Both the position numbers and the translations under genes were made by a program. The notes under the pieces are model-generated. The model was given only the letters and a program-made list of their open reading frames with translations, did no database searches and was not told where the DNA came from. From IMG/VR virus record IMGVR_UViG_2693429557_000008, positions 1 through 12,679 of that record: a DNA stretch of 12,679 bases. One strand, 5' to 3'. This DNA is from a virus (lineage: Duplodnaviria; Heunggongvirae; Uroviricota; Caudoviricetes). Positions 1 to 12,679 of the stretch are shown one piece after another (position 1 is the stretch's first letter; each line of letters starts with the position of its first letter).

Positions 1-26
1 TTATCGAATACCTCGGTTTACAGGAA
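1..26 (+). other. Invertase crossover site 1 (gix/cix/hix-like 26-bp site, ttatcgaatacc-tc-ggtttacaggaa) lying inside the tail-fibre reading frame
   Basis: Two imperfect 12-bp half-sites flanking a central TC, resembling hix/gix half-sites (TTATCnAAnACC) as I recall them. An exact inverted copy lies at 2953-2978 and a 2-mismatch inverted copy at 4944-4969. The site is read through in frame as I-E-Y-L-G-L-Q-E-T. Confidence 0.8.
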
Positions 27-971
27 ACGGTAAATCAGGCTTCTGGCGCATTACAGAAAAACCAGAACGGCGCAGATATTCCGGGGAAAGATACCTTCAC
101 CAAAAATATTGGTGCCTGCCGCGCATATAGCTCATGGCTGAATATTGGTGGCGATAGTCAGGTCTGGACAACCGCGCAATTTATTTCGTGGCTGGAGAGT
201 CAGGGAGCATTTAACCATCCTTACTGGATGTGCAAAGGCTCATGGGCTTATGCAAATAATAAGGTCATTACAGATACAGGTTGCGGAAATATTTGTCTTG
301 CAGGTGCTGTGGTGGAAGTTATTGGCACTCGCGGCGCAATGACCATACGCGTTACCACGCCGAGCACGTCCAGCGGTGGCGGAATTACTAACGCTCAATT
401 CACTTATATTAATCATGGTGATGCTTACGCTCCTGGCTGGCGACGAGACTACAACACGAAAAATCAACAACCTGCATTTGCTTTAGGGCAAACAGGAAGC
501 ACTGTCGGAAATGATAAAGCTGTTGGCTGGAACTGGAATAGCGGGGTCTATAACGCAAACATTGGTGGCGCATCGACATTAATCCTCCACTTCAATATGA
601 ATACGGGGAGCTGCCCTGCTGTACAGTTCCGCGTGAATTACAGGAACGGCGGTATTTTTTATCGTTCAGCGCGTGATGGTTATGGCTTTGAAGCTGACTG
701 GTCAGAGTTTTACACCACAACCCGCAAACCCTCTGCGGGAGATGTTGGTGCATATACGCAGGCAGAATGTAACTCAAGGTTTATTACAGGTATTCGCCTT
801 GGTGGTCTGTTATCTGTTCAGACATGGAATGGTCCCGGATGGTCTGACAGGTCAGGTTATGTTGTTACCGGTTCCGTTAACTCAAACAGAGATGAACTAA
901 TTGATACAACTCAGGCAAGGCCAATTCAGTATTGCATTAATGGGACGTGGTATAACGCGGGGAGTATTTAA
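1..971 (+). CDS. Tail fibre protein, variable C-terminal segment A (5' end outside window; constant N-terminal part presumably upstream)
   Basis: Open frame from position 3 to TAA at 969-971. It begins inside the crossover site ([12 protein letters not shown]...) and ends with ...RPIQYCINGTWYNAGSI, a C-terminal motif shared with cassettes B and C. A tfa gene follows 2 nt downstream. Confidence 0.85.
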   Translation, partial: IEYLGLQETVNQASGALQKNQNGADIPGKDTFTKNIGACRAYSSWLNIGGDSQVWTTAQFISWLESQGAFNHPYWMCKGSWAYANNKVITDTGCGNICLAGAVVEVIGTRGAMTIRVTTPSTSSGGGITNAQFTYINHGDAYAPGWRRDYNTKNQQPAFALGQTGSTVGNDKAVGWNWNSGVYNANIGGASTLILHFNMNTGSCPAVQFRVNYRNGGIFYRSARDGYGFEADWSEFYTTTRKPSAGDVGAYTQAECNSRFITGIRLGGLLSVQTWNGPGWSDRSGYVVTGSVNSNRDELIDTTQARPIQYCINGTWYNAGSI

Positions 972-973
972 CG

Positions 974-1507
974 ATGATGCACTTAAAAAACATTTCTGCT
1001 GGTAATCCTGAAACAAAAGAGCAATACCAGCTAACGAAACAATTTAACATCAAATGGCTTTATACAGAGGATGGGAAAAACTGGTATGAGGAACAAAAGA
1101 ACTTTCAGCCTGATACGTTGAAAATGGTCTATGACCACAACGGCGTTATTATTTGTATTGAAAAGGATGTTTCAGCAATTAATCCGGAAGGCGCAAGCGT
1201 CGTTGAGGTTCCTGATATTACAGCAAATCGCCGGGCTGATATTTCAGGTAAATGGATGTTCAAAGATGGCGTAGTGATAAAGCGAACTTATACCGGGGAA
1301 GAGCAGAGGCAACAAGCGGAAAATGAAAAGCAAAGCCTGCTACAGCTCGTCAGGGATAAAACCCAGCTATGGGACTCACAGCTACGGCTGGGCATTATTT
1401 CCGACGAGAATAAACAAAAATTAACCGAGTGGATGCTCTATGCGCAGAAGGTCGAATCCACAGACACCTCCAGCCTGCCAGTAACGTTTCCCGAACAACC
1501 AGAATGA
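974..1507 (+). CDS. Tail fibre assembly chaperone (Tfa) for cassette A
   Basis: ATG ATG at 974, 2 nt after the fibre stop, with GGGGAG upstream. The N-terminus MMHLKNISAGNP...DGKNWYEE...FQPDT is the conserved Tfa N-domain, paralogous to the two - strand tfa genes. Ends TGA at 1505-1507. Confidence 0.9.
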   Translation: MMHLKNISAGNPETKEQYQLTKQFNIKWLYTEDGKNWYEEQKNFQPDTLKMVYDHNGVIICIEKDVSAINPEGASVVEVPDITANRRADISGKWMFKDGVVIKRTYTGEEQRQQAENEKQSLLQLVRDKTQLWDSQLRLGIISDENKQKLTEWMLYAQKVESTDTSSLPVTFPEQPE

Positions 1508-1731
1508 GAGAAGGCCCGCTATCGGGCCTTAATTTTTATTCAGGCTTTTGTGGCCATTCAGGATTTGCCGTATCCACACGGCTGACCAGAACACTGTAGC
1601 GTTCCCATGCTTCCAGTCGTGTGCGTTCCTCGTCCGTCGCCATATTCAGCCTGACAGCGCGTTCCAGCGGCTGGATGACTGATTCAGCTTCGGAAAGCAA
1701 TGCGGCCTTTTGTGATTCGGCCTGTTGTTGC
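1273..1731. repeat. Direct repeat copy 1 (~459 bp, ~98-99% identical to 3141-3599): tfa 3' end, terminator and 3' end of the convergent tfa
   Basis: Aligned by eye at a constant offset of 1868 bp. The only differences seen are about 6 substitutions clustered around the terminator. Confidence 0.85.
1511..1538. terminator. Bidirectional rho-independent terminator between convergent tfa genes
   Basis: aaggcccg-ctat-cgggcctt: 8-bp GC-rich stem with 4-nt loop, followed by a T-run on the + strand and preceded by an A-run, so it is U-rich on both transcripts. Confidence 0.65.
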
Positions 1732-2063
1732 AGTTCCTGTTCTGTATATTCCCTCTTTACTACTTTACCATCCAGAAACATCCATTTTCCGTTATTGTCT
1801 GCGTGACGATTTGCCGTAATATCAGGAACTTCAACTATGCTTAGCCCTTCAGGATTAATAGTTGAAACGTCTTTACTGACAGCAACGATGATGTTGTTCT
1901 CATCGTAAGCAATTTTTATGGTGTCTGGCTGAAAATTCTTTTGTTCCTCATACCAGTTTTTGCCATCTTCGCAAAAGAGCCATACCACGCCCGCTTTTTT
2001 AGTTAGCTGGTATTGTTCCGGTGTTTTCGGATTCCCGGCCTTAATATTTTTCAGGTGCATCAT
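1536..2063 (-). CDS. Tail fibre assembly chaperone (Tfa) for cassette B
   Basis: The track ORF 1536..2099 starts at TTG; the conserved [12 protein letters not shown] start is the ATG at 2063, one nt after the cassette B stop. Its C-terminal ~65 aa are identical to the tfa at 3404..3931. Confidence 0.9.
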
Positions 2064-2064
2064 C

Positions 2065-2978
2065 TTAAACACTCCCCACGTTGTACCATATTCCCCCAAT
2101 CAATTTCTGAATTGGCCTTCTGGCAACAGTGTCGACAATATCATCCGCATTGCTGTTAATTGCGGCTGTTAAAACATAACCTGACGCATCGCCAAAGCCG
2201 TAGTCGCGCCATACGTTTTTATATTCAATGCTGCCAAGACGAATATCCCGAACGACATGATTATGCAGCCATGTGCTTAACCAGTTGTTTTCCCACACTG
2301 AACCATAAATATCGCCACTAGACGCAACTTGCGCACCACTTCCCAGCGCAAATCCCCCATCTGTTTTAAAAATGAAATCACCACCACCATCTGAACCGTT
2401 ATTAATATGAACACCATCACCACCGTTATCTTTCCACAAAAACATACGAATTCTTCCGTCTTCGTTGGCGAATGTAATGTGGTGGCGGTAATTACTTTTT
2501 AATCTAAAATTGCTGCCATTAGATTCAATATCTTTATAAAGATGTAATCCTAACTCATCAATATGTCCGATGCGCGAACCATTTGAATAGAAGCTAATAA
2601 TACCATCTCCATCTTGCCTAAATCCGGTGTCGTTATCTCCCAGAACAATGGAGTTTTCACCCAGTGCGTTATCAGTAGCTCCAATAGCTAGACCTCCTTT
2701 AATTTTGGCCCCGTGGCTGACAGATATAGCACCTGTTCTCAGATTTATAGCGAATGGCCTTAATGGGCCGATATTACCGTTTTCGCCTTGTCCTTCAGCC
2801 GTCGGAATGAAATGAAGAAAATCTTCTGAACGACGGAAAATTAGACCGAAGGTATCATTGAAAATTCGCAGCGCATTCACCGTGCCAATTTTCAGTTCTC
2901 CGGTCATTTTATCGCCGGAACGCTGAACGGCGTTACCAGCCTTGTTTACCGTTTCCTGTAAACCGAGGTATTCGATAA
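2065..2978 (-). CDS. Tail fibre alternative C-terminal cassette B (silent in this orientation; no start codon or full constant region of its own)
   Basis: The frame runs from crossover site 2 ([17 protein letters not shown]...) to TAA at 2065-2067 and ends ...[18 protein letters not shown]. The track ORF 2065..3201 extends upstream only by reading through the constant-region fragment and the antisense of a tfa fragment. Confidence 0.8.
2953..2978 (-). other. Invertase crossover site 2 (inverted orientation, 26/26 identical to site 1)
   Basis: The reverse complement of 2949-2978 equals window positions 1-30 exactly. Confidence 0.85.
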
Positions 2979-3131
2979 CGGCAGCAACGGTCGATTTCGC
3001 AAGAATATCCCGCCCGACTTTTGTCAGGGTTGCCAGGCTGGCGACATCATTCCCCGTAAAATACGGAAACTTGCCTGCCGCAGTAGTAAGTCCGGCCAGC
3101 GCCGTCAGGGTGGCATCTTTCGGTTGCTTAC
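2979..3131 (-). pseudogene. Fragment of the tail-fibre constant region (3' ~150 bp) abutting site 2 in inverted orientation
   Basis: In frame with cassette B on the - strand: ...[48 protein letters not shown] followed by IEYLGLQ at the site. It has no start codon and ends abruptly at the boundary of the 459-bp repeat. Confidence 0.7.
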
Positions 3132-3140
3132 CCGCAAGCG

Positions 3141-3375
3141 AGTGATAAAGCGAACTTATACCGGGGAAGAGCAGAGGCAACAAGCGGAAAATGAAAAGCA
3201 AAGCCTGCTACAGCTCGTCAGGGATAAAACCCAGCTATGGGACTCACAGCTACGGCTGGGCATTATTTCCGACGAGAATAAACAAAAATTAACCGAGTGG
3301 ATGCTCTATGCGCAGAAGGTCGAATCCACAGACACCTCCAGCCTGCCAGTAACGTTTCCCGAACAACCAGAATGA
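3141..3375 (+). pseudogene. Truncated tfa gene (3' 235 bp, identical to the 3' end of the tfa at 974..1507)
   Basis: 3141-3375 appears base-for-base identical to 1273-1507 by eye. It encodes only the C-terminal ~77 aa (…KRTYTGEEQRQQAENEKQ…PVTFPEQPE). The track ORF 3124..3375 has no Tfa N-domain. Confidence 0.8.
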
Positions 3376-3378
3376 AAC

Positions 3379-3405
3379 AAGGCCCGATATCGGGCCTTAA
3401 TTTTT
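3379..3405. terminator. Bidirectional rho-independent terminator (second copy)
   Basis: aaggcccg-atat-cgggcctt followed by TTTTT. It is part of the 459-bp direct repeat; the stem is conserved and the loop differs by one base. Confidence 0.65.
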
Positions 3406-3931
3406 ACTCAGGCTTTTGTGGCCATTCTGGCTTTGCCGTATCCACACGGCTGACCAGAACACTGTAGCGTTCCCATGCTTCCAGTCGTGTGCGTTCCTCG
3501 TCCGTCGCCATATTCAGCCTGACAGCGCGTTCCAGCGGCTGGATGACTGATTCAGCTTCGGAAAGCAATGCGGCCTTTTGTGATTCGGCCTGTTGTTGCT
3601 GTTCGTCAGCCGTATAAATCCGTTTAACCACAGCTCCGTCCTTAAACATCCACTTACCGGAATCATCAGCACGACGATTAGCTGTAATATCAGGAACCTC
3701 AACGACGCTATAACCTTCAGGGTTAAGCGTGGAGGCATCTTTGGTGATGGCGACAATAATATTATTTGCATCGTAAACAATCTTTATTGTGTCTGGCTGA
3801 AAGTTCTTCACTTCCTCATACCAGTTTTTTCCGTCCTCAGAGTAAAGCCAGATGACTCCGTGCTTCTTTGTTAACTCATACTGCTCCACTGTTTTAGCAT
3901 TACCTGCTTTTATGTTCTTTAAGTGCATCAT
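3404..3931 (-). CDS. Tail fibre assembly chaperone (Tfa) for cassette C
   Basis: ATG ATG at 3931/3928 ([14 protein letters not shown]...), one nt after the cassette C stop. The track ORF start at 3964 is likely an upstream extension. It resembles e14 TfaE-type chaperones as I recall them. Confidence 0.9.
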
Positions 3932-3932
3932 A

Positions 3933-4961
3933 TTAAATACTCGCCACATTATACCAAGTGCCATTTATATACTTTTGCACTGGCCTGTAATGAACGCCTG
4001 CAATATTATCGGCAGAGTTTTTTCCGGTATCCTGTACGTTAATCCCCGTCAGTACATAGCCTGACGGGCACTGAAAATTCCATGTTTGCCAGTTGTTCAC
4101 TCCATAATATTGCTGTGAACCAAGTCGAACATCTTTCACATATCTGGAATCAAAATTGCCATAGTTGCCGGGAATAACTTGCGAGCCGCAAAGCCAGTTC
4201 CCGTTATTATCCATGTACGCCTGACCATCGGTGCCATTGGCTGTCCTTGAGTTATTAATCATGTAGATGCCAAATTGCTTATTTCCCAGACCGCCAATCA
4301 TAAATTTGCGGTCGGCATGGTCCTGACGGAGCAAAGCCTGAGCACCATCAGTGGATACCGCATTACGTCCCAAAATAACATTCTGGTCACGCATATGAAT
4401 CCACATGCCGGTACTACTGTTAATTGCAAAACGGTTTGCAAATATATCCCCTGTAACATCAAGACCATGCCCCATGCTTATCCGGCCAGTTCTGAGATTA
4501 AGCGTAAAGGGGCGTAGTGGCCCTATATTACCATTTTCCCCTTCATTCTCTCGTGTAGGGATGATATGCAGGCATTCTTCAGAACGACGAAAAATGGCAC
4601 CAAAAGATGAATTAAATATCCTCAGTGCATTGACTGTCGATATTTTCACTTCACTGCTGAAAAGGGCTTCAACAAGAACAGACAAAGCATTCCATTTAAG
4701 ATTCATCAGGTCTTTAGGCCGGGTGCCAATGATGCGGTGTCTCCATTTGAAATATTCATTGCCGTTGTTGCCTGTTTCAAACCACATGTAGGAATCGGTG
4801 TCTGCATCCGAATTATTTTTAAACCCAATCTTTGCCCAGTCAGTATTTCGAATCCAGGCAAGGATTGAGTCGTTTTCAAAAGTAAGTCCACCGGACAACG
4901 TATCGCCATTTTTTTGCACGGCGTTACCAGCCTTGTTTACCGTTTCCTGTAAACCGAGGTT
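3933..4961 (-). CDS. Tail fibre alternative C-terminal cassette C (silent in this orientation)
   Basis: The frame is open from just inside crossover site 3 to TAA at 3933-3935. The track M at 4919 is actually an in-frame GTG (Val) within ...[17 protein letters not shown].... Ends ...[20 protein letters not shown]. The upstream in-frame stop TAA (4962-4964) sits in the outer arm of site 3. Confidence 0.8.
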
Positions 4962-4969
4962 TTAGATAA
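4944..4969 (-). other. Invertase crossover site 3 (inverted orientation; variant outer arm ttatctaaaacc, same central TC)
   Basis: The reverse complement of 4940-4969 is ttatctaaaacctcggtttacaggaaacgg, matching site 1 at 28 of 30 positions. The inner flank (4921-4939) is identical to the flank of site 2. Confidence 0.8.
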
Positions 4970-5023
4970 TGGCCGTTTCCGGCCTGCATGGCATGATTTG
5001 CGCTTTTGGACGGGAGATTCAGC

Positions 5024-5611
5024 GTGCTGATTGGCTATGTAAGGGTATCAACAAATGACCAGAATACAGACCTGCAACGAAACGCTCTTGTTTGTGCAGG
5101 ATGTGAACAAATATTTGAAGATAAATTAAGCGGGACAAAGACAGACCGACCGGGATTAAAACGCGCTTTAAAGCGCCTTCAAAAAGGTGACACGCTGGTT
5201 GTCTGGAAACTGGATCGCCTCGGGCGAAGCATGAAACATCTGATTTCTCTCGTCGGGGAACTACGGGAGCGAGGAATTAATTTTCGCAGTCTGACCGACA
5301 GCATAGATACATCTTCTCCAATGGGGCGTTTTTTCTTCCACGTGATGGGTGCCCTGGCTGAAATGGAACGTGAATTAATTGTTGAACGTACACTGGCCGG
5401 ACTGGCGGCAGCACGCGCACGGGGGCGCACAGGCGGACGTCGACCGAAGCTGACAAAAGAACAGCATGAGCAAATAGCAAGGCTGATCAAAAACGGGCAC
5501 GACAGAAAACAACTGGCAATAATTTACGGCATTGGTATATCGACGATTTATCGTTACCACCCCGCAGGAGAATCAATCGGAACAATAGAGAAGAGTCAGG
5601 AAACAAAATAA
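5024..5611 (+). CDS. Serine-recombinase DNA invertase (Pin/Gin/Cin/Hin family)
   Basis: MLIGYVRVSTNDQNTDLQRNAL... with the catalytic Ser in the YVRVST motif and a C-terminal HTH region. A GTG start at 5024 has GGGAGA 6 nt upstream; the track ORF begins at an upstream TTG at 5006. Ends TAA at 5609-5611. Confidence 0.93.
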   Translation: MLIGYVRVSTNDQNTDLQRNALVCAGCEQIFEDKLSGTKTDRPGLKRALKRLQKGDTLVVWKLDRLGRSMKHLISLVGELRERGINFRSLTDSIDTSSPMGRFFFHVMGALAEMERELIVERTLAGLAAARARGRTGGRRPKLTKEQHEQIARLIKNGHDRKQLAIIYGIGISTIYRYHPAGESIGTIEKSQETK

Positions 5612-5640
5612 CCGCTAATCTGACCATTAGCGGTTTTTGT
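5611..5640. terminator. Bidirectional rho-independent terminator between invertase (+) and U (-)
   Basis: accgctaat-ctgacc-attagcggt: 9-bp stem with 6-nt loop, followed by TTTTTGT on the + strand and by a U-rich run on the - strand transcript. Confidence 0.7.
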
Positions 5641-5646
5641 GTTAAA

Positions 5647-6141
5647 TCAGAACAACCCTTTAACTGAACTGGCCGCGCTGTTAAGGGATGATGTTACCTT
5701 ATCTTTGAAGCCGGACAGCATATCGCTGAACGATGAGGATTGCAGGCGCTCCCGCAAATCCTCATCACAGCGTTCAAGAGTCAGTGAAAATTCTATCTTT
5801 TTCGCCTTACCGTAGCGATCAAACTCGGAGCGGGTCGTATTCGTTTCGGTCAGGACATACATGCCGTAAATCTGCCCGACGCCATCAATCAGAGGCCAGG
5901 GTCGTCCTGTATACGCCTGCGTGGTCAGCAGCGACAGCGACACTTCGCCACCTGTAATTTCAGGATAAAGCACACCAGAAAGAACGATGCGCTCATCACC
6001 TGCACCGATATACTGCCAGCTTGCCGAACGGTTAACGCGTTCATTTTTCACATGCCGCCAGCTTTTGTTTTGCTGTAACTGCTGATGCGGCAATGTACGC
6101 AGCTCAAAAACAAACATGCCGTAGATCATCATCATGGCCAT
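5647..6141 (-). CDS. U: Tail protein U homologue (P2 gpU-like)
   Basis: About 160 aa, immediately downstream of the tape measure gene, with a …SWRH…LSGVL.PE.TGG… pattern I recall from gpU. The start is ambiguous among ATGs at 6141, 6135 and 6132; GAGGAG at 6144-6149 favours 6135 or 6132. Confidence 0.8.
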   Translation of the reverse strand: MAMMMIYGMFVFELRTLPHQQLQQNKSWRHVKNERVNRSASWQYIGAGDERIVLSGVLYPEITGGEVSLSLLTTQAYTGRPWPLIDGVGQIYGMYVLTETNTTRSEFDRYGKAKKIEFSLTLERCDEDLRERLQSSSFSDMLSGFKDKVTSSLNSAASSVKGLF

Positions 6142-6147
6142 GACTCC

Positions 6148-8955
6148 TCAATCTTTATCGTAAAAACTGCCACGCCCGGCACGGGCGCGCCGTTCCATTT
6201 CTGCCCTGACCATTTCACCGACCAGTTTCGCCAGTTCGCGGGGATTCTGCGTAACAACGTTATGCAGATGAACATGAATTTCACCACCAAATCCGGAGGC
6301 AACAGGCTCCCGGTTACGGGAAGTTACAGGAACTGATGCCACTGGAGAGCGTATGGCCTCCGCCACCGGGCGGGAGCTGGCCGCAACAACAGGGACCAGC
6401 GCCGGAGGCAGCGGAGCCGGGACCACGGGTGTGATATTAATTGCGGGGGCAGGCTTACTGACCTGCGCAATCTTCCGCTCCTGCCACTCCCCACGAACAG
6501 CAAGTGCGCGGGGCAGGTTCTTAAAGACAATATCGCCGGGGCCAATGCGTTTTTTCGTCTCATCAACCAGCTTACCTGTGTTATCAGCAATTTTGCTGAG
6601 TCTGCGTAGCGTCCCGGTATTGCTGTCTGTGAGCGGTTTGTTGTCTTTGGGTTTATCACCTCCGGTGCCATTGCCATTTTCCACAGGCTTCGGCGGATTG
6701 ATTTTCGCCAGGTCCCCCTGAAGCAAGGCAACCTTGTCCTGAAGAATGGCCGCACGCTGTGCGTCTTCGATTTTCTTGCGCGCCCTTTCCGCTTCATCCG
6801 GAAGGACGCCAAGTTTTTCAAGTATCCACGCCAGCGTATCCAGTAGCATTTTTGCAGGTGTCAGAACAAGTTGTAACGCACCGCCAAGAACGTTACCGAA
6901 TATCTCGCCAGCACTGGCACATTTATCCAGCGTTTCCTTGCTGGACTCCATCGGTGACAGCAGCGATTTAAACCAGTTAAAGACCTGAATAATCCCATCG
7001 CGCACGACATCAAAAACAGGGCCAAACCGTTCAAAGGTTTCGCGCAACGGGGTCAGCCTTTCCATAATCCCGCTGAACACCCCGGCAAAAAATGCCCTGA
7101 TGGGATCCCAGTATTTCCAGATAAGAACGGCAGCTCCGGCAAGCGCAGCCACGATAAGACTAACCGGACTGAACAGCGCCCCGATAGCGCCACCAAGTAA
7201 AGAAACGGAACCCGTCACCATTCCCCATAATGCAGGCAGAACCCTGACAACATTCATTGATTCGGTCAGGAGAGAAAAACCGAGACGCAACGTAGCCAGC
7301 TTCCCGTGAAGCACCCCAATAACCAGAGACAACGAACCAACCGTTGCTGTTGTCGCCAGCAGTGCGCCTCCCGCTATCAGTAACTGGCGCGTCAGTGCCG
7401 GGTGGGCCTGCGCCAGCGCCGTCACCTTTGAGACAACCCGCGTGAGCCACTGCGTGACAGAACGCAGCGGACCGTCAACCAGATCACTGATGCGAATACG
7501 CAGACCTTCCCATGCACTGCCGAGTGATTTCAGGTTGCCATCAAGGTTATTGGCCATAACCTTTGCCGTGCGTTCTGCCTCACCGCGCGCGCCTTCAAGT
7601 TCTTTTCTCAGTTTGGCTAAGAAGCCGTCACCTGCCGCATCAACGAGGCCCATAAATGATGTGAAAGCCTCTTCTCCGGCAATGTCCTTAAAGAACGATA
7701 CCCGGTCAACCTCCCCGTATTTGCGGGTGGCTTTATAGAGATCGGCCAGCACATTCTCCATCGGGCGCATTTTGCCTTTGGCGTCAGCAACTGACACCCC
7801 CAGCTCTTTCAGTGCTTCTGCCGCTGCCTTTGGCGGTGATGACAGATTGGCCAGGCTTTTACGCAACGCTGTACCTGCATCACTCCCCCTGATACCCATC
7901 TTCGCCAGCACGCCCGCCATCGCTGCGGCCTGCTCCAGCGATATTCCCAGCTTACCCGCCACCGGACCTGCATATTTCATGGTTTCGCCCAGTGCGCGAA
8001 GGTCAGTGTTGGTACGGGTAAACGCTGCGGTAAGTGTGTCACCGACCCGGTCCATCTGGTCAGCAGAGAGGCCGAACTGCGTCAGGATATTGGAACCAAT
8101 ATCCGCCGTCTCGCCGAGGTCCATACCGCCAGCCGTTGCCATGCTCAGCACGCCGGGAAGCGCAGCCTGAATGGCCTGCGGTGTGAAACCAGCCATTGCA
8201 AGAAATGCCTGTCCACTGGCGGCATCGCCTGCGGTGAACTGCGTTTCAGAGCCAAGTTTTAACGCCTGCTCACGCAGCGCCTTAAACTGCGGGCTGTTTT
8301 TATCGATTCGCGTCAGTGCCTGAACACGGGACATCTCTTTCCCGAACCCGATAGCGGGCTGCAAAAAACGCCCGGCAGCATAGCCGCCCGCTGCCGCCGC
8401 ACCTGTTGCCAGCGCACCACCTGTTTTCAGTTTTCCCGCTGTTTCCTGCGCGCGTGAATACCGCTCACGCGCCTGCGTTACACGCGCAAGCGCCCGCCGT
8501 TCGCGTTCAAGCTGGTTGTTGTATTGTCCGGTGCGTCTGATGGCCTGCTGGATGGTGTTATCGCTGCCTGTCAGGGAAATGCCGTGGCGTTTCAGCTCTC
8601 CGCCAAGTTCCCGCATTTTCTGAATTTCCCGTGTGCGCGATTCATTCAGGCGTTCAAGCCGGGTGCTTAACTGCTGCATCAGCTTTTGTTGTTTTTCGCT
8701 GAGCACTGTACCCGTGCGTTGTAACTGATTAAGGGCGTTAAGCTGGCGTCGTGCTTTCACGATGCCCGCATCCGCTTTACTGACAGCGTCACGGGCGCGC
8801 TCAAATGAACGCGCCTGACGCTCGAGATTTTTGATCGCCCCCTGCGTTCGCTGGATGGAGTCACCAAACTGCCCCATCAGGCGGCGGGCGTTTTCGGCAG
8901 GCCGGGTCAGCCTGTCAACGGCGCTGAAAGCGACCCGGATATCAAGAGTCTTCAT
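6148..8955 (-). CDS. T: Tail tape measure protein (P2 gpT-like)
   Basis: A ~935-aa ORF, alanine/glycine-rich, with predicted hydrophobic segments and a proline-rich C-terminal stretch. It sits between E+E' and U, and its start overlaps the E' end. The track start at 8991 is GTG; ATGs at 8964 and 8955 are alternatives, 8955 having GGGAA 8 nt upstream. Confidence 0.88.
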   Translation of the reverse strand: MKTLDIRVAFSAVDRLTRPAENARRLMGQFGDSIQRTQGAIKNLERQARSFERARDAVSKADAGIVKARRQLNALNQLQRTGTVLSEKQQKLMQQLSTRLERLNESRTREIQKMRELGGELKRHGISLTGSDNTIQQAIRRTGQYNNQLERERRALARVTQARERYSRAQETAGKLKTGGALATGAAAAGGYAAGRFLQPAIGFGKEMSRVQALTRIDKNSPQFKALREQALKLGSETQFTAGDAASGQAFLAMAGFTPQAIQAALPGVLSMATAGGMDLGETADIGSNILTQFGLSADQMDRVGDTLTAAFTRTNTDLRALGETMKYAGPVAGKLGISLEQAAAMAGVLAKMGIRGSDAGTALRKSLANLSSPPKAAAEALKELGVSVADAKGKMRPMENVLADLYKATRKYGEVDRVSFFKDIAGEEAFTSFMGLVDAAGDGFLAKLRKELEGARGEAERTAKVMANNLDGNLKSLGSAWEGLRIRISDLVDGPLRSVTQWLTRVVSKVTALAQAHPALTRQLLIAGGALLATTATVGSLSLVIGVLHGKLATLRLGFSLLTESMNVVRVLPALWGMVTGSVSLLGGAIGALFSPVSLIVAALAGAAVLIWKYWDPIRAFFAGVFSGIMERLTPLRETFERFGPVFDVVRDGIIQVFNWFKSLLSPMESSKETLDKCASAGEIFGNVLGGALQLVLTPAKMLLDTLAWILEKLGVLPDEAERARKKIEDAQRAAILQDKVALLQGDLAKINPPKPVENGNGTGGDKPKDNKPLTDSNTGTLRRLSKIADNTGKLVDETKKRIGPGDIVFKNLPRALAVRGEWQERKIAQVSKPAPAINITPVVPAPLPPALVPVVAASSRPVAEAIRSPVASVPVTSRNREPVASGFGGEIHVHLHNVVTQNPRELAKLVGEMVRAEMERRARAGRGSFYDKD

Positions 8956-9471
8956 TGTCTGCATTCCCGCTGCGAAGTGCCGCCCGCTCACGCCAGCTAA
9001 CCACTTCGCCGGGCGTCATCATGAAGATTTCGGCGGGCGACCAGTTAAAAATGGCGGCAATATCCGCCACAAAGTCTTCTATGTGCTCAAAGCACACAAC
9101 CGTGATCAGGCTTCCGTCGCCTGTTCGTTCTTCTCGCCAGAGTCCGCACCGCTCAAAAAATTTACGGCAACCACACATAACTGAATAAAGTCACGGGATG
9201 CCATTTTTTTGATCGTCACTTCATCCAGTCGCGGTGATGTCACGCGTGACAGCAGCGTAAACATGGATTCCGCTTTCAAATTCAGCACATCAGACAGCGA
9301 CAAATCTCGCAGAGATCCAGCCTGCTCAATAGCCCCGGTGATCTCCACATACGTGATTTTTTCGCCGCCTCGCTCAATTGGTTGGGTAAGTTTTACGCCA
9401 CGCTCACTGGTTTCTTTCACAGTGTCAGCAACGACCGTGTTTTCGGTATCGATGTTTTTCGTCTCTTTCAT
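8942..9471 (-). CDS. E+E' fusion produced by programmed -1 ribosomal frameshift (slip at 9154-9160)
   Basis: The -1 frame is blocked by a stop at 9191-9193 and then open from 9190 to TGA at 8942-8944. The E-frame heptamer T-TTT-TTG lies inside this overlap. The predicted fusion is about 176 aa. Confidence 0.7.
9106..9471 (-). CDS. E: Tail assembly chaperone E (P2 gpE / lambda G analogue)
   Basis: ATG at 9471 with AAGGAG 7 nt upstream. The 121-aa zero-frame product ends at TGA 9108-9106. It lies between the tube gene and the tape measure gene and contains a TTTTTTG slippery heptamer. Confidence 0.8.
   Translation of the reverse strand: MKETKNIDTENTVVADTVKETSERGVKLTQPIERGGEKITYVEITGAIEQAGSLRDLSLSDVLNLKAESMFTLLSRVTSPRLDEVTIKKMASRDFIQLCVVAVNFLSGADSGEKNEQATEA
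9154..9160 (-). promoter_or_regulatory. Slippery heptamer T TTT TTG for the E/E' -1 frameshift
   Basis: The - strand reads aaT TTT TTG agc in the E frame (…V N F L S…). This is the heptamer I recall being reported for the P2 E/E+E' frameshift. Confidence 0.65.
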
Positions 9472-9525
9472 CAGGAAACTCCTTTCAGTCAGAGGCGACG
9501 CACTGCGCCGCCTGCATATTACTTA

Positions 9526-10038
9526 TCAGCCAAGCCCGAGCGCGGAACGGATGCGATCGGGCACAATGTCCCTGCCGTCCTTCCGGTAAATGAAGTTCAG
9601 CAGGTCAATCTCCCACAACGGGCGATCGTTAACACTCAGCTTGTAGTAGGTGTTTTTAATGGCGTAAGTGTGTGATGTGGCTTCGCCCTGTTTGGCTTCC
9701 CCCATATCAATTTCCGTCACACGTCCGCGCATTTCGACTTCATACAGGTCGCTTTCAGCGTCGGTGTAGTATTCACCCGCAAAACGCAGCAGCGTACCGT
9801 CAATCGTGCCGCCATACTTAAGGAACAGCTCACGAACTGCGCCCCCCATGACAAAGCTCGCATCAAGCGCGGAGTCATCCAGGCCGAGATCAATACTTAC
9901 CGCTCCCATCATGCCACCACCCCGGTAGCTGTCGGTTTTGCGCGTCAGCTTAGGCAGAGTGACGGACGTCACCTTACCCACTTCGTTTTCACCATCCACA
10001 AACAGCGTAAAAAAGCGAAGATGTTTTGGTACAGCCAT
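9526..10038 (-). CDS. FII: Tail tube protein (P2 FII-like)
   Basis: A 170-aa ORF whose ATG at 10038 overlaps the sheath TGA stop (shared A at 10038, translational coupling). Size and position match the P2 F_I-F_II pair. Confidence 0.88.
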   Translation of the reverse strand: MAVPKHLRFFTLFVDGENEVGKVTSVTLPKLTRKTDSYRGGGMMGAVSIDLGLDDSALDASFVMGGAVRELFLKYGGTIDGTLLRFAGEYYTDAESDLYEVEMRGRVTEIDMGEAKQGEATSHTYAIKNTYYKLSVNDRPLWEIDLLNFIYRKDGRDIVPDRIRSALGLG

Positions 10039-11222
10039 CAGGCACCTCCCAGCACCGCAAATGCGGGACCAAAGAATTCATCAGTAAACGACTGGTAAAG
10101 CTCCATGTCTTCCAGCGGGGGAACAGGCGTATATTTGTAGCGAATACGCACGCGCCCCTGACGTAAATTCGTGGTGCCGTTATCCACCACGTCATACCAG
10201 CACGACGCCCCAATCAGTTTCCCGGCAGTAACCAGTGAATCCAGTTTTGCCCTGATGGCACCGATAACATCCTTCACGTTCGCAGGCGTCAGTGGACTGT
10301 CGATGGTTTCAAACTGCGCTTCCGCAATTGAATCAGCCAGCACCTGTGCGGTTCGGGTATACACCTCAAAGATGTAGGCGTTCGTTTCCGGTGTGCGGTT
10401 GCCCCAGAAGCGGAACCCGTTGCGACGAATAATGGTCGTGATTTCTTTGTTGTTGAGGCTGTTGGCATCACTGTCTTCGGCCTGCAACGACCAGAACACA
10501 TGCCTGGACATCCCCAGCACATTTTTAACCGGAACGTTGGACAGCGATTTGTGCCAGCCCTGCTCATGGTCAATGTACGCACGAAGGCCGCACGCATAGG
10601 CAGGCGCGGGGAACGTTTCGTTTTTGCCACTTTTCGGGTTGTAGGCGATGAAGTCCGGCCATAAGAGCATCACCTCACGTTCGTTGAATTTCTGGCGGTA
10701 GGTAATTGCCTCAGCCATCGTGTTACAGTCATGACATGAGGCATACACAAACGCGCGCAGTTTACCCGCAATCACGCACAGGGATTTTGTCACCGCCTCC
10801 GTGTCCAGCTCCGGCGCGGCCAGAATACGCGGACGGTATCCGATGCTTTCATCCTGCTCTGCAACAAGCAGCGCATACATCCCCGTATAGCTGCCGTCAG
10901 ATTCAGAACCACCGATAACCAGTTGATCCTGCGTTTTTCCGTCTTCTTCTTTGTGTTCAGCCACGCGAACGACGATCACCTTTGTGCTCACCTGGTCTGC
11001 GATGGCCTTAAGCGCACGATAAAGCGTCCCCGTTGTTCCGCATTTTCCCAGCACGTCATTGACGCGGGGCAGCAGTGTGGGCTTGTTCAGCGGGAACAGC
11101 TCCGCGTCCGCATCATCCGCCGTTGCCACGATACCGATAACGCTGGAATCAACATCGTTAATCGCTGTTACCAGGTCGGTATTTTCCGTAACACGGGCAC
11201 CATGAAAACGAGTTTCACTCAT
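10038..11222 (-). CDS. FI: Contractile tail sheath protein (P2 FI-like)
   Basis: A 394-aa ORF with motifs I recall from P2-family sheaths (FPLNKP…, EQGWHK.LSNV, RRNGFRFWGNRT, YTRTAQV, YKYTPVPPLE). ATG at 11222 with AAGGGG 8 nt upstream. Confidence 0.93.
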   Translation of the reverse strand: MSETRFHGARVTENTDLVTAINDVDSSVIGIVATADDADAELFPLNKPTLLPRVNDVLGKCGTTGTLYRALKAIADQVSTKVIVVRVAEHKEEDGKTQDQLVIGGSESDGSYTGMYALLVAEQDESIGYRPRILAAPELDTEAVTKSLCVIAGKLRAFVYASCHDCNTMAEAITYRQKFNEREVMLLWPDFIAYNPKSGKNETFPAPAYACGLRAYIDHEQGWHKSLSNVPVKNVLGMSRHVFWSLQAEDSDANSLNNKEITTIIRRNGFRFWGNRTPETNAYIFEVYTRTAQVLADSIAEAQFETIDSPLTPANVKDVIGAIRAKLDSLVTAGKLIGASCWYDVVDNGTTNLRQGRVRIRYKYTPVPPLEDMELYQSFTDEFFGPAFAVLGGA

Positions 11223-11379
11223 AGCTTCAACCCCTTGTATCCGTTAAATGATTCGGCAACAATCATCACCCACCACGCGCGTAATCTCACCCCTGCGCCA
11301 TTCTCCCGCCACGGCGACAACAAAAAGCAGTAACCCCCTCCGCACGCACATGCGACCATGCCACACAGGGAGGGAGCAG

Positions 11380-12489
11380 ATGACCGACACCACCATGCAA
11401 TTGCTCAGTCAGGGCACAGACCCCGTGAAAATGCCGGATTTTGATATTCTCGCGGAGGGTAAAACGCTGTCAGGCGTGGCAGAGCGCCTGATGAGCCTGT
11501 CACTGACCGACAACCGGGGATTTGAGGCGGACCAGCTCACCATCACGCTGGATGATGCGGATGGTCAGTTGCAGCTACCGCCACGGGGCGCGCGCCTGAC
11601 GGTTCTCATTGGCTGGAAGGGAGAACCGCTGACAGAAAAAGGCACTTACATTGTTGATGAAATCGCTCACGAAGGACCGCCGGACAGGCTGACTGTTTCA
11701 GCCAGAAGCGCAGATTTTCGGGCTGAATTTAACGTTAAACGTGAGGTGTCCTGGCATGATGTGACCGTTGAGCGTGTGGTATCCGCCATCGCTCATCGGT
11801 ATGGTCTGAAACCGCAAATCAGCGAAATGCTGATGGATATCGAAATCGACCACGCCGACCAGACCGAAGAAAGCGACATGTCCTTCCTTACGCGCATGGC
11901 GGAAATGCTGGGCGCAATCACCACGGTAAAAAGCGGTAATCTGTTATTCATCATGCCCGGTGGTGGCGTGAACGCACAGGGCCAGCCGTTGCCCTCGTTC
12001 GCCATCACACGCAGCAGCGGCGATCGCCATCAGTTCCGCATTGCTGACCGCGAAGCGTATACGGGGGTACGCGCTTACTGGCTTGATCTTAATTACGGGA
12101 AAAAGAAAAAAGTCAGCGTGAAACGCCGCAAACCGTCAAAACCAAAAAAGGAGAAAAGCAGCAGCCGGGAAGGCGACTATATGGAAGGTGCGGAAGGCAA
12201 CGTGTTTGTGTTACGCAAAACTTATCAGAACGAGCAGGCAGCAAGACGTGCAGCGGCGGCAAAGTGGCAGCAGCTACAACGCGGAGCCGCATCATTCTCC
12301 ATCACACTGGCGCATGGACGTGCAGAACTCTACCCCGAAATGCATGGCACGGTAACAGGATTTAAAAGCGAGATTGATAATCAGGACTGGATTATTGCAA
12401 AAGCCGAGCACACCATTGATAACAGCGGCTTTACCACGCAGCTTGAGCTTGAGGCAAAAATCCCGGAATGGATAGCAGAAACAGAGTGA
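11380..12489 (+). CDS. D: Tail protein D homologue (P2 gpD-like late tail gene)
   Basis: The ORF track opens at 11248, but the ATG at 11380 has GGGAGGGAG upstream and gives MTDTTMQLLSQGTDPVKMPDFDIL…LTDNRGFEADQL…RSADFR…SWHD…, matching the gpD pattern as I remember it. It includes a lysine-rich low-complexity insert (KKKKVSVKRRKPSKPKKEK). Confidence 0.85.
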   Translation: MTDTTMQLLSQGTDPVKMPDFDILAEGKTLSGVAERLMSLSLTDNRGFEADQLTITLDDADGQLQLPPRGARLTVLIGWKGEPLTEKGTYIVDEIAHEGPPDRLTVSARSADFRAEFNVKREVSWHDVTVERVVSAIAHRYGLKPQISEMLMDIEIDHADQTEESDMSFLTRMAEMLGAITTVKSGNLLFIMPGGGVNAQGQPLPSFAITRSSGDRHQFRIADREAYTGVRAYWLDLNYGKKKKVSVKRRKPSKPKKEKSSSREGDYMEGAEGNVFVLRKTYQNEQAARRAAAAKWQQLQRGAASFSITLAHGRAELYPEMHGTVTGFKSEIDNQDWIIAKAEHTIDNSGFTTQLELEAKIPEWIAETE

Positions 12490-12638
12490 GCAACTTAAAT
12501 GTATTAACTCAGAACGGATCAACACACTCACAACATAGAGTCAATATAGCTGCTCGCTTTGTTCCAGCAAGGATGCCTATTTCTAAGGAAAAACAGAGCA
12601 GAAACATATGGTGTTTTCCTACCTGACATCAGGGGTGG

Positions 12639-12679
12639 TAGACTGGCCCCCTGAATCTCCAGACAACCAGTATCACTTA
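12639..12679 (+). mobile_element. Left terminal inverted repeat of an IS2-like insertion sequence (truncated by window end)
   Basis: tagactggccccctgaatctccagacaaccagtatcactta matches the IS2 left end as I remember it (TAGACTGGCCCCCTGAATCTCCAGACAACCAATATCACTTA…) with one difference. Only about 41 bp are visible, and this is from memory, not a search. Confidence 0.6.

Follow-up and report, generated by a model that had tools for sequence, protein, structure and literature searches.

We analyzed a 12,679-nt stretch of viral DNA (IMG/VR record IMGVR_UViG_2693429557_000008, positions 1 to 12,679; referred to here as the window) that carries a crossover site, site 3, with a stop codon in the reading frame of a tail fibre gene. 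Site 3 is very probably the invertase-proximal crossover site (i.e., the counterpart of gixR of phage Mu) of a Gin-type tail fibre switch in a P2-like prophage. It is an ordinary invertase-side site of a well-known system, real and already known, and its TAA is most likely an inherited and neutral by-product without a gating role, incidental and harmless. This account draws directly on the anatomy of the locus, on a tight association between the outer arm of a site and its flank, and on the interval that contains the crossover.

Crossover sites and gene order in the window

Scanning the window with TTATCNAANACCTCGGTTTACAGGAA at up to 3 mismatches returned exactly three crossover sites (Table 1), with zero expected by chance from 200 dinucleotide-preserving shuffles, and a looser scan of the window against the symmetric DNA-invertase consensus revealed no fourth site. 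The 26-bp sites fit the Din-family architecture, in which a 2-bp core separates two imperfect, inverted half-sites of 12 bp. The core is TC in each; site 1 lies on the plus strand, opposite to sites 2 and 3 (minus strand), and the GATAA block and the GG/CC beside the core are unbroken throughout. Sites 1 and 2 read TTATCGAATACC-TC-GGTTTACAGGAA, whereas site 3 reads TTATCTAAAACC-TC-GGTTTACAGGAA and thus departs from them at exactly two outer-arm bases (positions 8 and 5 of the half-site, numbered from the center). The scan confirmed this two-base difference, which had been noted in an earlier, sequence-only reading of this DNA; the range given there (4940-4969) was correct, with the site proper occupying 26 bp (4944-4969). 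Compared with the family consensus, TTATCNAAAACC-NN-GGTTTTNGATAA, site 3 has four mismatches and sites 1 and 2 have five each. The core 20 bp of site 3 differ by one base from gix as tabulated in PMC3985619.

Table 1 Features of the fibre cassettes, crossover sites, and invertase region in the window
Feature	Positions	Strand	Basis or remark
Crossover site 1, fibre-constant-side type	1..26	+	Motif scan; outer arm paired with constant-region flank in relatives
Cassette A, variable C-terminal tail fibre part, joined to site 1	3..971	+	Open frame from window start; Pfam gp37_C
tfaA, tail fibre assembly gene of cassette A	974..1507	+	Pfam Caudo_TAP, E = 7e-37
tfaB, tail fibre assembly gene of cassette B	1536..2063	-	Pfam Caudo_TAP, E = 8e-37
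Cassette B, silent variable fibre end	2065..2952	-	Pfam gp37_trimer; missing from two-site relative L001
Crossover site 2, outer arm as in site 1	2953..2978	-	Motif scan
Fibre constant-region remnant, 54 codons, attached to site 2	2979..3140	-	Translation ...KDATLTALAGL...; similarity to L001 and L139
Second copy of tfaA 3' end, exact 235 nt (= 1273-1507)	3141..3375	+	Abrupt left edge against remnant
tfaC, tail fibre assembly gene of cassette C	3404..3931	-	Pfam Caudo_TAP, E = 3e-37; 175-aa gene in L126 and L141
Cassette C, silent variable fibre end abutting site 3	3933..4943	-	Frame open from site to stop at 3933
Crossover site 3, invertase-proximal	4944..4969	-	Motif scan; TAA at 4964-4962; staggered cut expected at central TC, 4956-4957
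Spacer from site 3 to invertase start, 54 nt	4970..5023	+	Contains GGGAGA
Serine DNA invertase, Gin/Pin/Cin group, GTG start, 195 aa	5024..5611	+	Pfam Resolvase, E = 1e-50; HTH_7, E = 2e-13
Two-way terminator-like hairpin	5610..5635		Between convergent invertase gene and gpU tail gene

The invertase shares 85% protein identity with Mu Gin, 78% with PinE, and 74% with Cin. Its N terminus, MLIGYVRVSTNDQ, contains Ser9, as is characteristic of the Din family (catalytic serine near residue 9-10). Nucleotides 1-108 of the gene are identical to those of Mu gin, and an enhancer is annotated at cin nt 19-90 in P1; by this resemblance, the first ~110 nt of the invertase gene probably contain a recombination enhancer; in Gin and Cin systems, this element depends on Fis and lies near the 5' end of the gene. 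The spacer between site and gene was 54 nt in all gix-type relatives surveyed and 55 nt in Pin-type relatives, and the GGGAGA that it contains in the window is a possible ribosome-binding site of the invertase. Downstream of the invertase, on the opposite strand, lie P2-type genes for gpU, the tape measure, the tube, and the sheath, followed by gpD on the plus strand.

The three compatible sites are accompanied by three cassettes, each with its own assembly gene. Window positions 1-2088 are 92.7% identical to the corresponding part of L001, an Escherichia coli relative. Many contigs on record encode the 280-aa product of cassette B (ATG at 2907), and cassette C is 99.8 to 100% identical to that of contigs L140 and L141. 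The constant-region remnant is 97% identical to the constant region of L001 over 2938-3140 and 100% identical to the lambdoid stf of L139 over 2958-3140; site 2 has an arm of the site 1 type because this constant-region piece is attached on its outer side.

At 3140/3141, the remnant meets the copied tfaA 3' end with only GCG microhomology and with one base missing relative to intact tfaA. This junction, which places site 2, was unique to the window: it was absent from 5426 complete E. coli genomes, from IMG/VR, and from the GTDB representative genomes, and the 378-aa and 83-aa open reading frames (ORFs) spanning or abutting it are not on record. A 77-aa ORF at the junction is on record only at contig ends that begin one base to the left, with intact tfaA sequence, and L140 and L141 (SKESA-style contigs) end within 1 nt of the right edge of the junction, again with intact tfaA sequence. 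A simple end-to-end join of contigs would keep the T at the start of L140 and L141, but the window is without that T. The window may consist of two contigs concatenated at 3140/3141, which these observations neither support nor exclude, and the junction itself may be the product of rare illegitimate recombination between prophages or an assembly error (mis-join). Its status concerns the context of site 2 alone and leaves the verdict on site 3 unchanged.

The two sides of the junction differ in their affiliations. The right part of the window (from 3138/3141) is 99.99% identical to a common P2-like prophage located next to pheT/ihfA, whereas identity to the same prophage is only ~95% over the left 3.1 kb (1-3140), which is similar to the invertible region found in lambdoid prophages. 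This makes the window a mosaic, and its tfaB and cassette B proteins occur, as exact matches, in lambdoid prophages beside the trp operon. Five other sequences (L116, L223, L227, L229, and L230; drafts and one IMG/VR contig) have three to five crossover sites each and join a lambdoid side-tail-fibre region, via gix-type sites, to a P2-like invertase and tail genes; some of them contain repeated invertase-side or constant-region remnants. These multi-site contigs indicate either invertase-mediated recombination between prophages of one chromosome or assembly errors at repeats. If the three-site layout of the window is real, it is a further example of fibre switches gaining host-range cassettes by recombination between prophages.

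Position 1 of the window is the first base of site 1, with the constant region itself outside the view, and a related IMG/VR contig (L142) starts at the last base of its invertase-side site. Both starts resemble breaks in the assembly at inverted repeats and, if so, would hint at a sequenced population of mixed orientation.

Outer arms and the interval of exchange among relatives

In the proposed switch, an invertase dimer would bind each 26-bp site, cut at the central TC, and swap the halves, so that the outer half of site 3 would always remain beside the invertase gene and would never be translated as part of a fibre. The outer halves of sites 1 and 2 would derive from the end of the fibre constant region, where they encode Ile-Glu-Tyr, whereas that of site 3, because it lies outside the fibre ORF, would be constrained by invertase binding only. 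Given that site 1 is inverted relative to sites 2 and 3, four states can be reached and three fibre ends displayed; the locus would thus be a three-site, four-state switch with three alternative fibre ends.

The wide survey of relatives rested on IMG/VR, complete E. coli genomes, and exact-protein look-ups, and the pattern used for IMG/VR left four central outer-arm bases free. Among the IMG/VR matches listed (at least 120 loci, mostly close E. coli-type relatives, with counts that are not independent events), the invertase-side arm was TTATCTAAAACC at 65 of 68 sites, and the arm beside an open fibre constant region was TTATCGAATACC at 75 of 81 sites. Exact-protein look-up added 27 loci, in which TTATCTAAAACC stood by the invertase in every case (30/30) and TTATCGAATACC by the constant region in every case (24/24), the outer arm agreeing with the flank at 54 of 54 classified sites overall. 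Of the 5426 complete E. coli genomes, 84 contained site 3 together with its spacer (80 nt) at 100% identity and 636 at 95% identity or more, and the same 26 bp adjoin the invertase in L001 (the E. coli relative with two sites) and in phage SfMu. The degenerate site pattern had no match in the GTDB representative genomes. The sequence-only reading had presented site 3 as a variant, a description that the comparison with related elements overturned, TTATCTAAAACC being the usual invertase-side form in the samples drawn. The contrast between site 3 and sites 1 and 2 is that between an invertase-side arm and a fibre-side arm.

Different genomes place the same cassette types next to either outer arm. 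The most direct comparison was provided by L133 and L139, which are one lambdoid prophage by the trp operon in both orientations, with flanks 99.9 to 100% identical and a 2.95-kb segment inverted. Between them, both outer-arm differences remain with the flanks, while the inner-arm difference (CAGGAA/CGAGAA) travels with the segment, and the exchange is thereby bracketed to ACC-TC-GGTTTAC, a 12-nt interval that includes the central TC. This bracketing agrees with the assignment of the gix crossover region to the central dinucleotide (PMC3985619). Exchange within this interval means that the TAA never enters the fused fibre gene. The inner arms occur in two forms, GGTTTACAGGAA and GGTTTACGAGAA, which move with the cassette and constitute a natural marker (L133 7086-7111 and 10002-10027; same coordinates in L139).

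The two products of an inversion between sites 1 and 3 were also observed for the cassette of the window. In L126 and L129 (99.99% identical to window 3138-12640), cassette C lies behind TTATCTAAAACC, with the invertase adjoining, whereas in L140 the order constant region-TTATCGAATACC-TC-cassette C forms an intact fibre ORF of 678 aa, its cassette C being 99.8% identical. The sequence-only reading had anticipated both outcomes, i.e., that the TAA arm would stay by the invertase and that the clean arm would join the constant region to cassette C, and both are borne out by these genomes. No crossover carried the TAA into the fused fibre frame, either between L133 and L139 or between L140 and L126/L129, and the latter comparison finds site 3 in use. 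Across the genomes compared, the outer arms stayed with their flanks, which points to strand exchange at the central dinucleotide. For the source strain, of which the window presents a single orientation, these relatives suggest that the switch is active and that inversion would involve site 3.

In three relatives (L127, L128, and L131; 99.97 to 99.99% identical to window 4959-12640), an IS3-family element is inserted inside the invertase-side outer arm (~16264 and 17520, corresponding to window 4958-4960), in the layout TTATCTAAAAC-IS-AAACCTCGG with a 3-bp duplication. This insertion should disable the invertase-side site and freeze the switch.

The public genomes in both orientations offer a clean demonstration, from sequence alone, of exchange at the central dinucleotide. 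Outer arms that differ between the two ends are normal for a Gin-type switch, and an in-frame stop in the invertase-side arm is not to be read as a defect or as a regulatory device. Beyond correct annotation, the importance of these observations is little.

The in-frame TAA and alternative explanations

With the open frame 3..971 taken as the fibre frame, minus-strand translation in this register placed a TAA at 4964-4962 of site 3, in accordance with the sequence-only reading. In the fibre frame, the consensus half-site TTATCNAAAACC supplies a codon NAA, which is a stop for one of the four possible bases; it is CAA in Mu, AAA in some relatives, GAA in sites 1 and 2, and TAA in site 3. Read on the same strand, half-site position 8 (the N of this codon) is C in Mu gix; some relatives have A or C there, sites 1 and 2 have G, and site 3 has T. 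It is the sole half-site position without a consensus base in the family, and all four bases are found there naturally. By hand count, the TAA form accounts for about 17 of the 22 distinct site-plus-spacer haplotypes in the clade. This frequency fits shared descent of the invertase module, with weak selection as an alternative that is inseparable on these data; we infer that the TAA is neutral.

A different view is that the TAA was selected as a translational barrier, or frame-closing insulator, that stops ribosomes from upstream minus-strand starts (e.g., the in-frame ATG at 4994-4992) from entering the silent cassette C, since a truncated fibre end could poison fibre assembly. That ATG sits 10 codons upstream of the TAA and is shared by every gix-type relative, Mu among them (peptide ...IMPC...), most haplotypes of the clade carry the TAA form, and in some relatives the TAA is the only stop in an upstream frame that is otherwise open for 102 codons. 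We nevertheless consider selection as a barrier highly improbable, and the blocking of read-through that the sequence-only reading had ascribed to the TAA was not upheld. Mu, the textbook example of a working fibre switch, has CAA at the equivalent codon, its frame running on without a stop for 102 codons into antisense gin, and several relatives likewise have CAA or AAA, with frames open for up to 102 codons; given the CAA of Mu and the AAA of relatives, the stop is not required. The window already has a second in-frame stop 18 codons upstream of the TAA, the stretch upstream is antisense to the invertase gene and shielded behind the terminator-like hairpin (5610-5635), and by eye no Shine-Dalgarno-like sequence precedes the ATG at 4994-4992. 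Moreover, the presence of the TAA among relatives was not linked to the absence of an upstream stop, and a stop at the NAA codon is a one-in-four outcome. If true, the barrier would be a translational safeguard added to Gin-type fibre switches and absent from Mu itself.

Signals for invertase expression could in principle constrain the outer arm of site 3 instead of the fibre frame, in the form of either a -10-like GATAAT (4965-4970) or the start of a 29-codon upstream ORF. The invertase-side flank is always GATAAT, while the fibre-side flank is GATAAC; the ORF (ATG at 4969 to TGA at 5058) has a GAGG 8 nt upstream, overlaps the invertase start, and is open in Mu too, and several draft assemblies annotate it as a 29-aa gene. 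This explanation is nonetheless very unlikely. A promoter scan found no sigma-70-like site, and thus no invertase promoter overlapping site 3, and by eye no acceptable -35 was present at 16 to 18 nt from GATAAT; the promoter was dropped as an explanation of the outer-arm sequence on these grounds. For the ORF, we estimated that an 18-codon open spacer would arise by accident with ~40% likelihood, and the 55-nt spacer of Pin-type relatives would shift its frame. Neither GATAAT nor the ATG includes position 4964, whose base turns the codon into TAA. The A of that ATG is the last base of site 3, and the 29-codon ORF (4969-5058, plus strand), which is out of frame with the invertase, is probably spurious, the alternative being a role as a leader peptide.

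The sequence-only reading had also raised a change in invertase affinity that biases cassette use. It is unlikely that the two base differences make the invertase bind or pair site 3 differently from sites 1 and 2 and thereby influence which cassette is displayed, even though the invertase does recognize the half-sites. Judging from Hin and Gin invertasomes, enhancer distance and DNA topology are more obvious causes of bias and at least as likely. Unequal inversion is a feature of the three-repeat switch of an enteropathogenic E. coli (EPEC) prophage, in which the large segment is ~90% in the forward orientation and the small one is variable (PMC4272514), and this favors some form of bias. However, the differences fall at positions 8 and 5, where the Gin catalytic domain is tolerant: any base is accepted at positions 7-10, as is a single A/T swap at positions 4-6 (PMC3616721). 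That assay used zinc-finger fusions without the native Gin DNA-binding domain and has no bearing on how that domain recognizes a site. Position 8 is naturally occupied by any of the four bases, and the conserved GATAA and the core-flanking GG/CC are intact in all three sites. In addition, two-site relatives have TTATCGAATACC and TTATCTAAAACC as sole partners, and both orientations are found. Any effect of the two site 3 bases on invertase affinity is unlikely to be large.

Comparison with known fibre switches

The G segment of Mu shares with the window 26-bp sites with the same inner arm and central dinucleotide (gix, TTCCTGTAAACC-GA-GGTTTTGGATAA), an invertase 85% identical to that of the window with the first 108 nt of its gene (the enhancer region) identical, and the same order of constant region, site, fibre end with assembly gene, inverted second set, site, and invertase. 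Mu differs in having two sites, both with the outer arm TTATCCAAAACC, which gives CAA instead of TAA. The window, by contrast, contains three sites with outer arms of two types, and its prophage is P2-like, with tail genes that are convergent with the invertase gene.

Closer counterparts are the two-site P2-like switches of E. coli (L001 in FDAARGOS_1370, and L126/L129) and SfMu, all with an invertase-side site and spacer identical to site 3. The fibre-side site matches site 1 exactly in the two-site P2-like prophages and reads TTATCCAAAACG in SfMu. The two-site relatives differ from the window in being without cassette B, site 2, the constant-region remnant, and the duplicated tfaA end (window 2089-3375).

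The Min system of plasmid p15B, which the three-site layout of the window also recalls, and the Cin systems of P1 and P7 have invertases of the same group as that of the window, and Min has six sites. According to its citation in PMC5903667, Sandmeier et al. (1990) described Min as clustered, overlapping invertible segments in which several crossover sites lie inside parts of fibre genes. Three-site P2-like fibre switches are already described: in a P2-like prophage of EPEC E2348/69, a three-repeat, four-variant fibre switch was demonstrated by PCR and sequencing (Goldberg et al. 2014; PMC4272514). That prophage has one invertase, three inverted repeats, four coexisting variants, and three fibre C termini, and its state count and connectivity match those derived for sites 1 to 3, a likeness by description and not by sequence. 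Its inverted segments are ~2.2 and 1.8 kb, compared with ~2.95 and 4.94 kb in the window.

In P1, too, the outer arms are not alike (CAATCCTAAACC on the cin side and TTATCCAATACC on the fibre side), but cin reads towards its site, whereas the invertase of the window reads away from it. In P1 cixL (L124, 856-875), the cin stop codon TAA lies inside the outer arm, in the cin frame and not in the fibre frame. P1 cixL is thus another invertase-side arm that contains a stop codon, for unrelated reasons.
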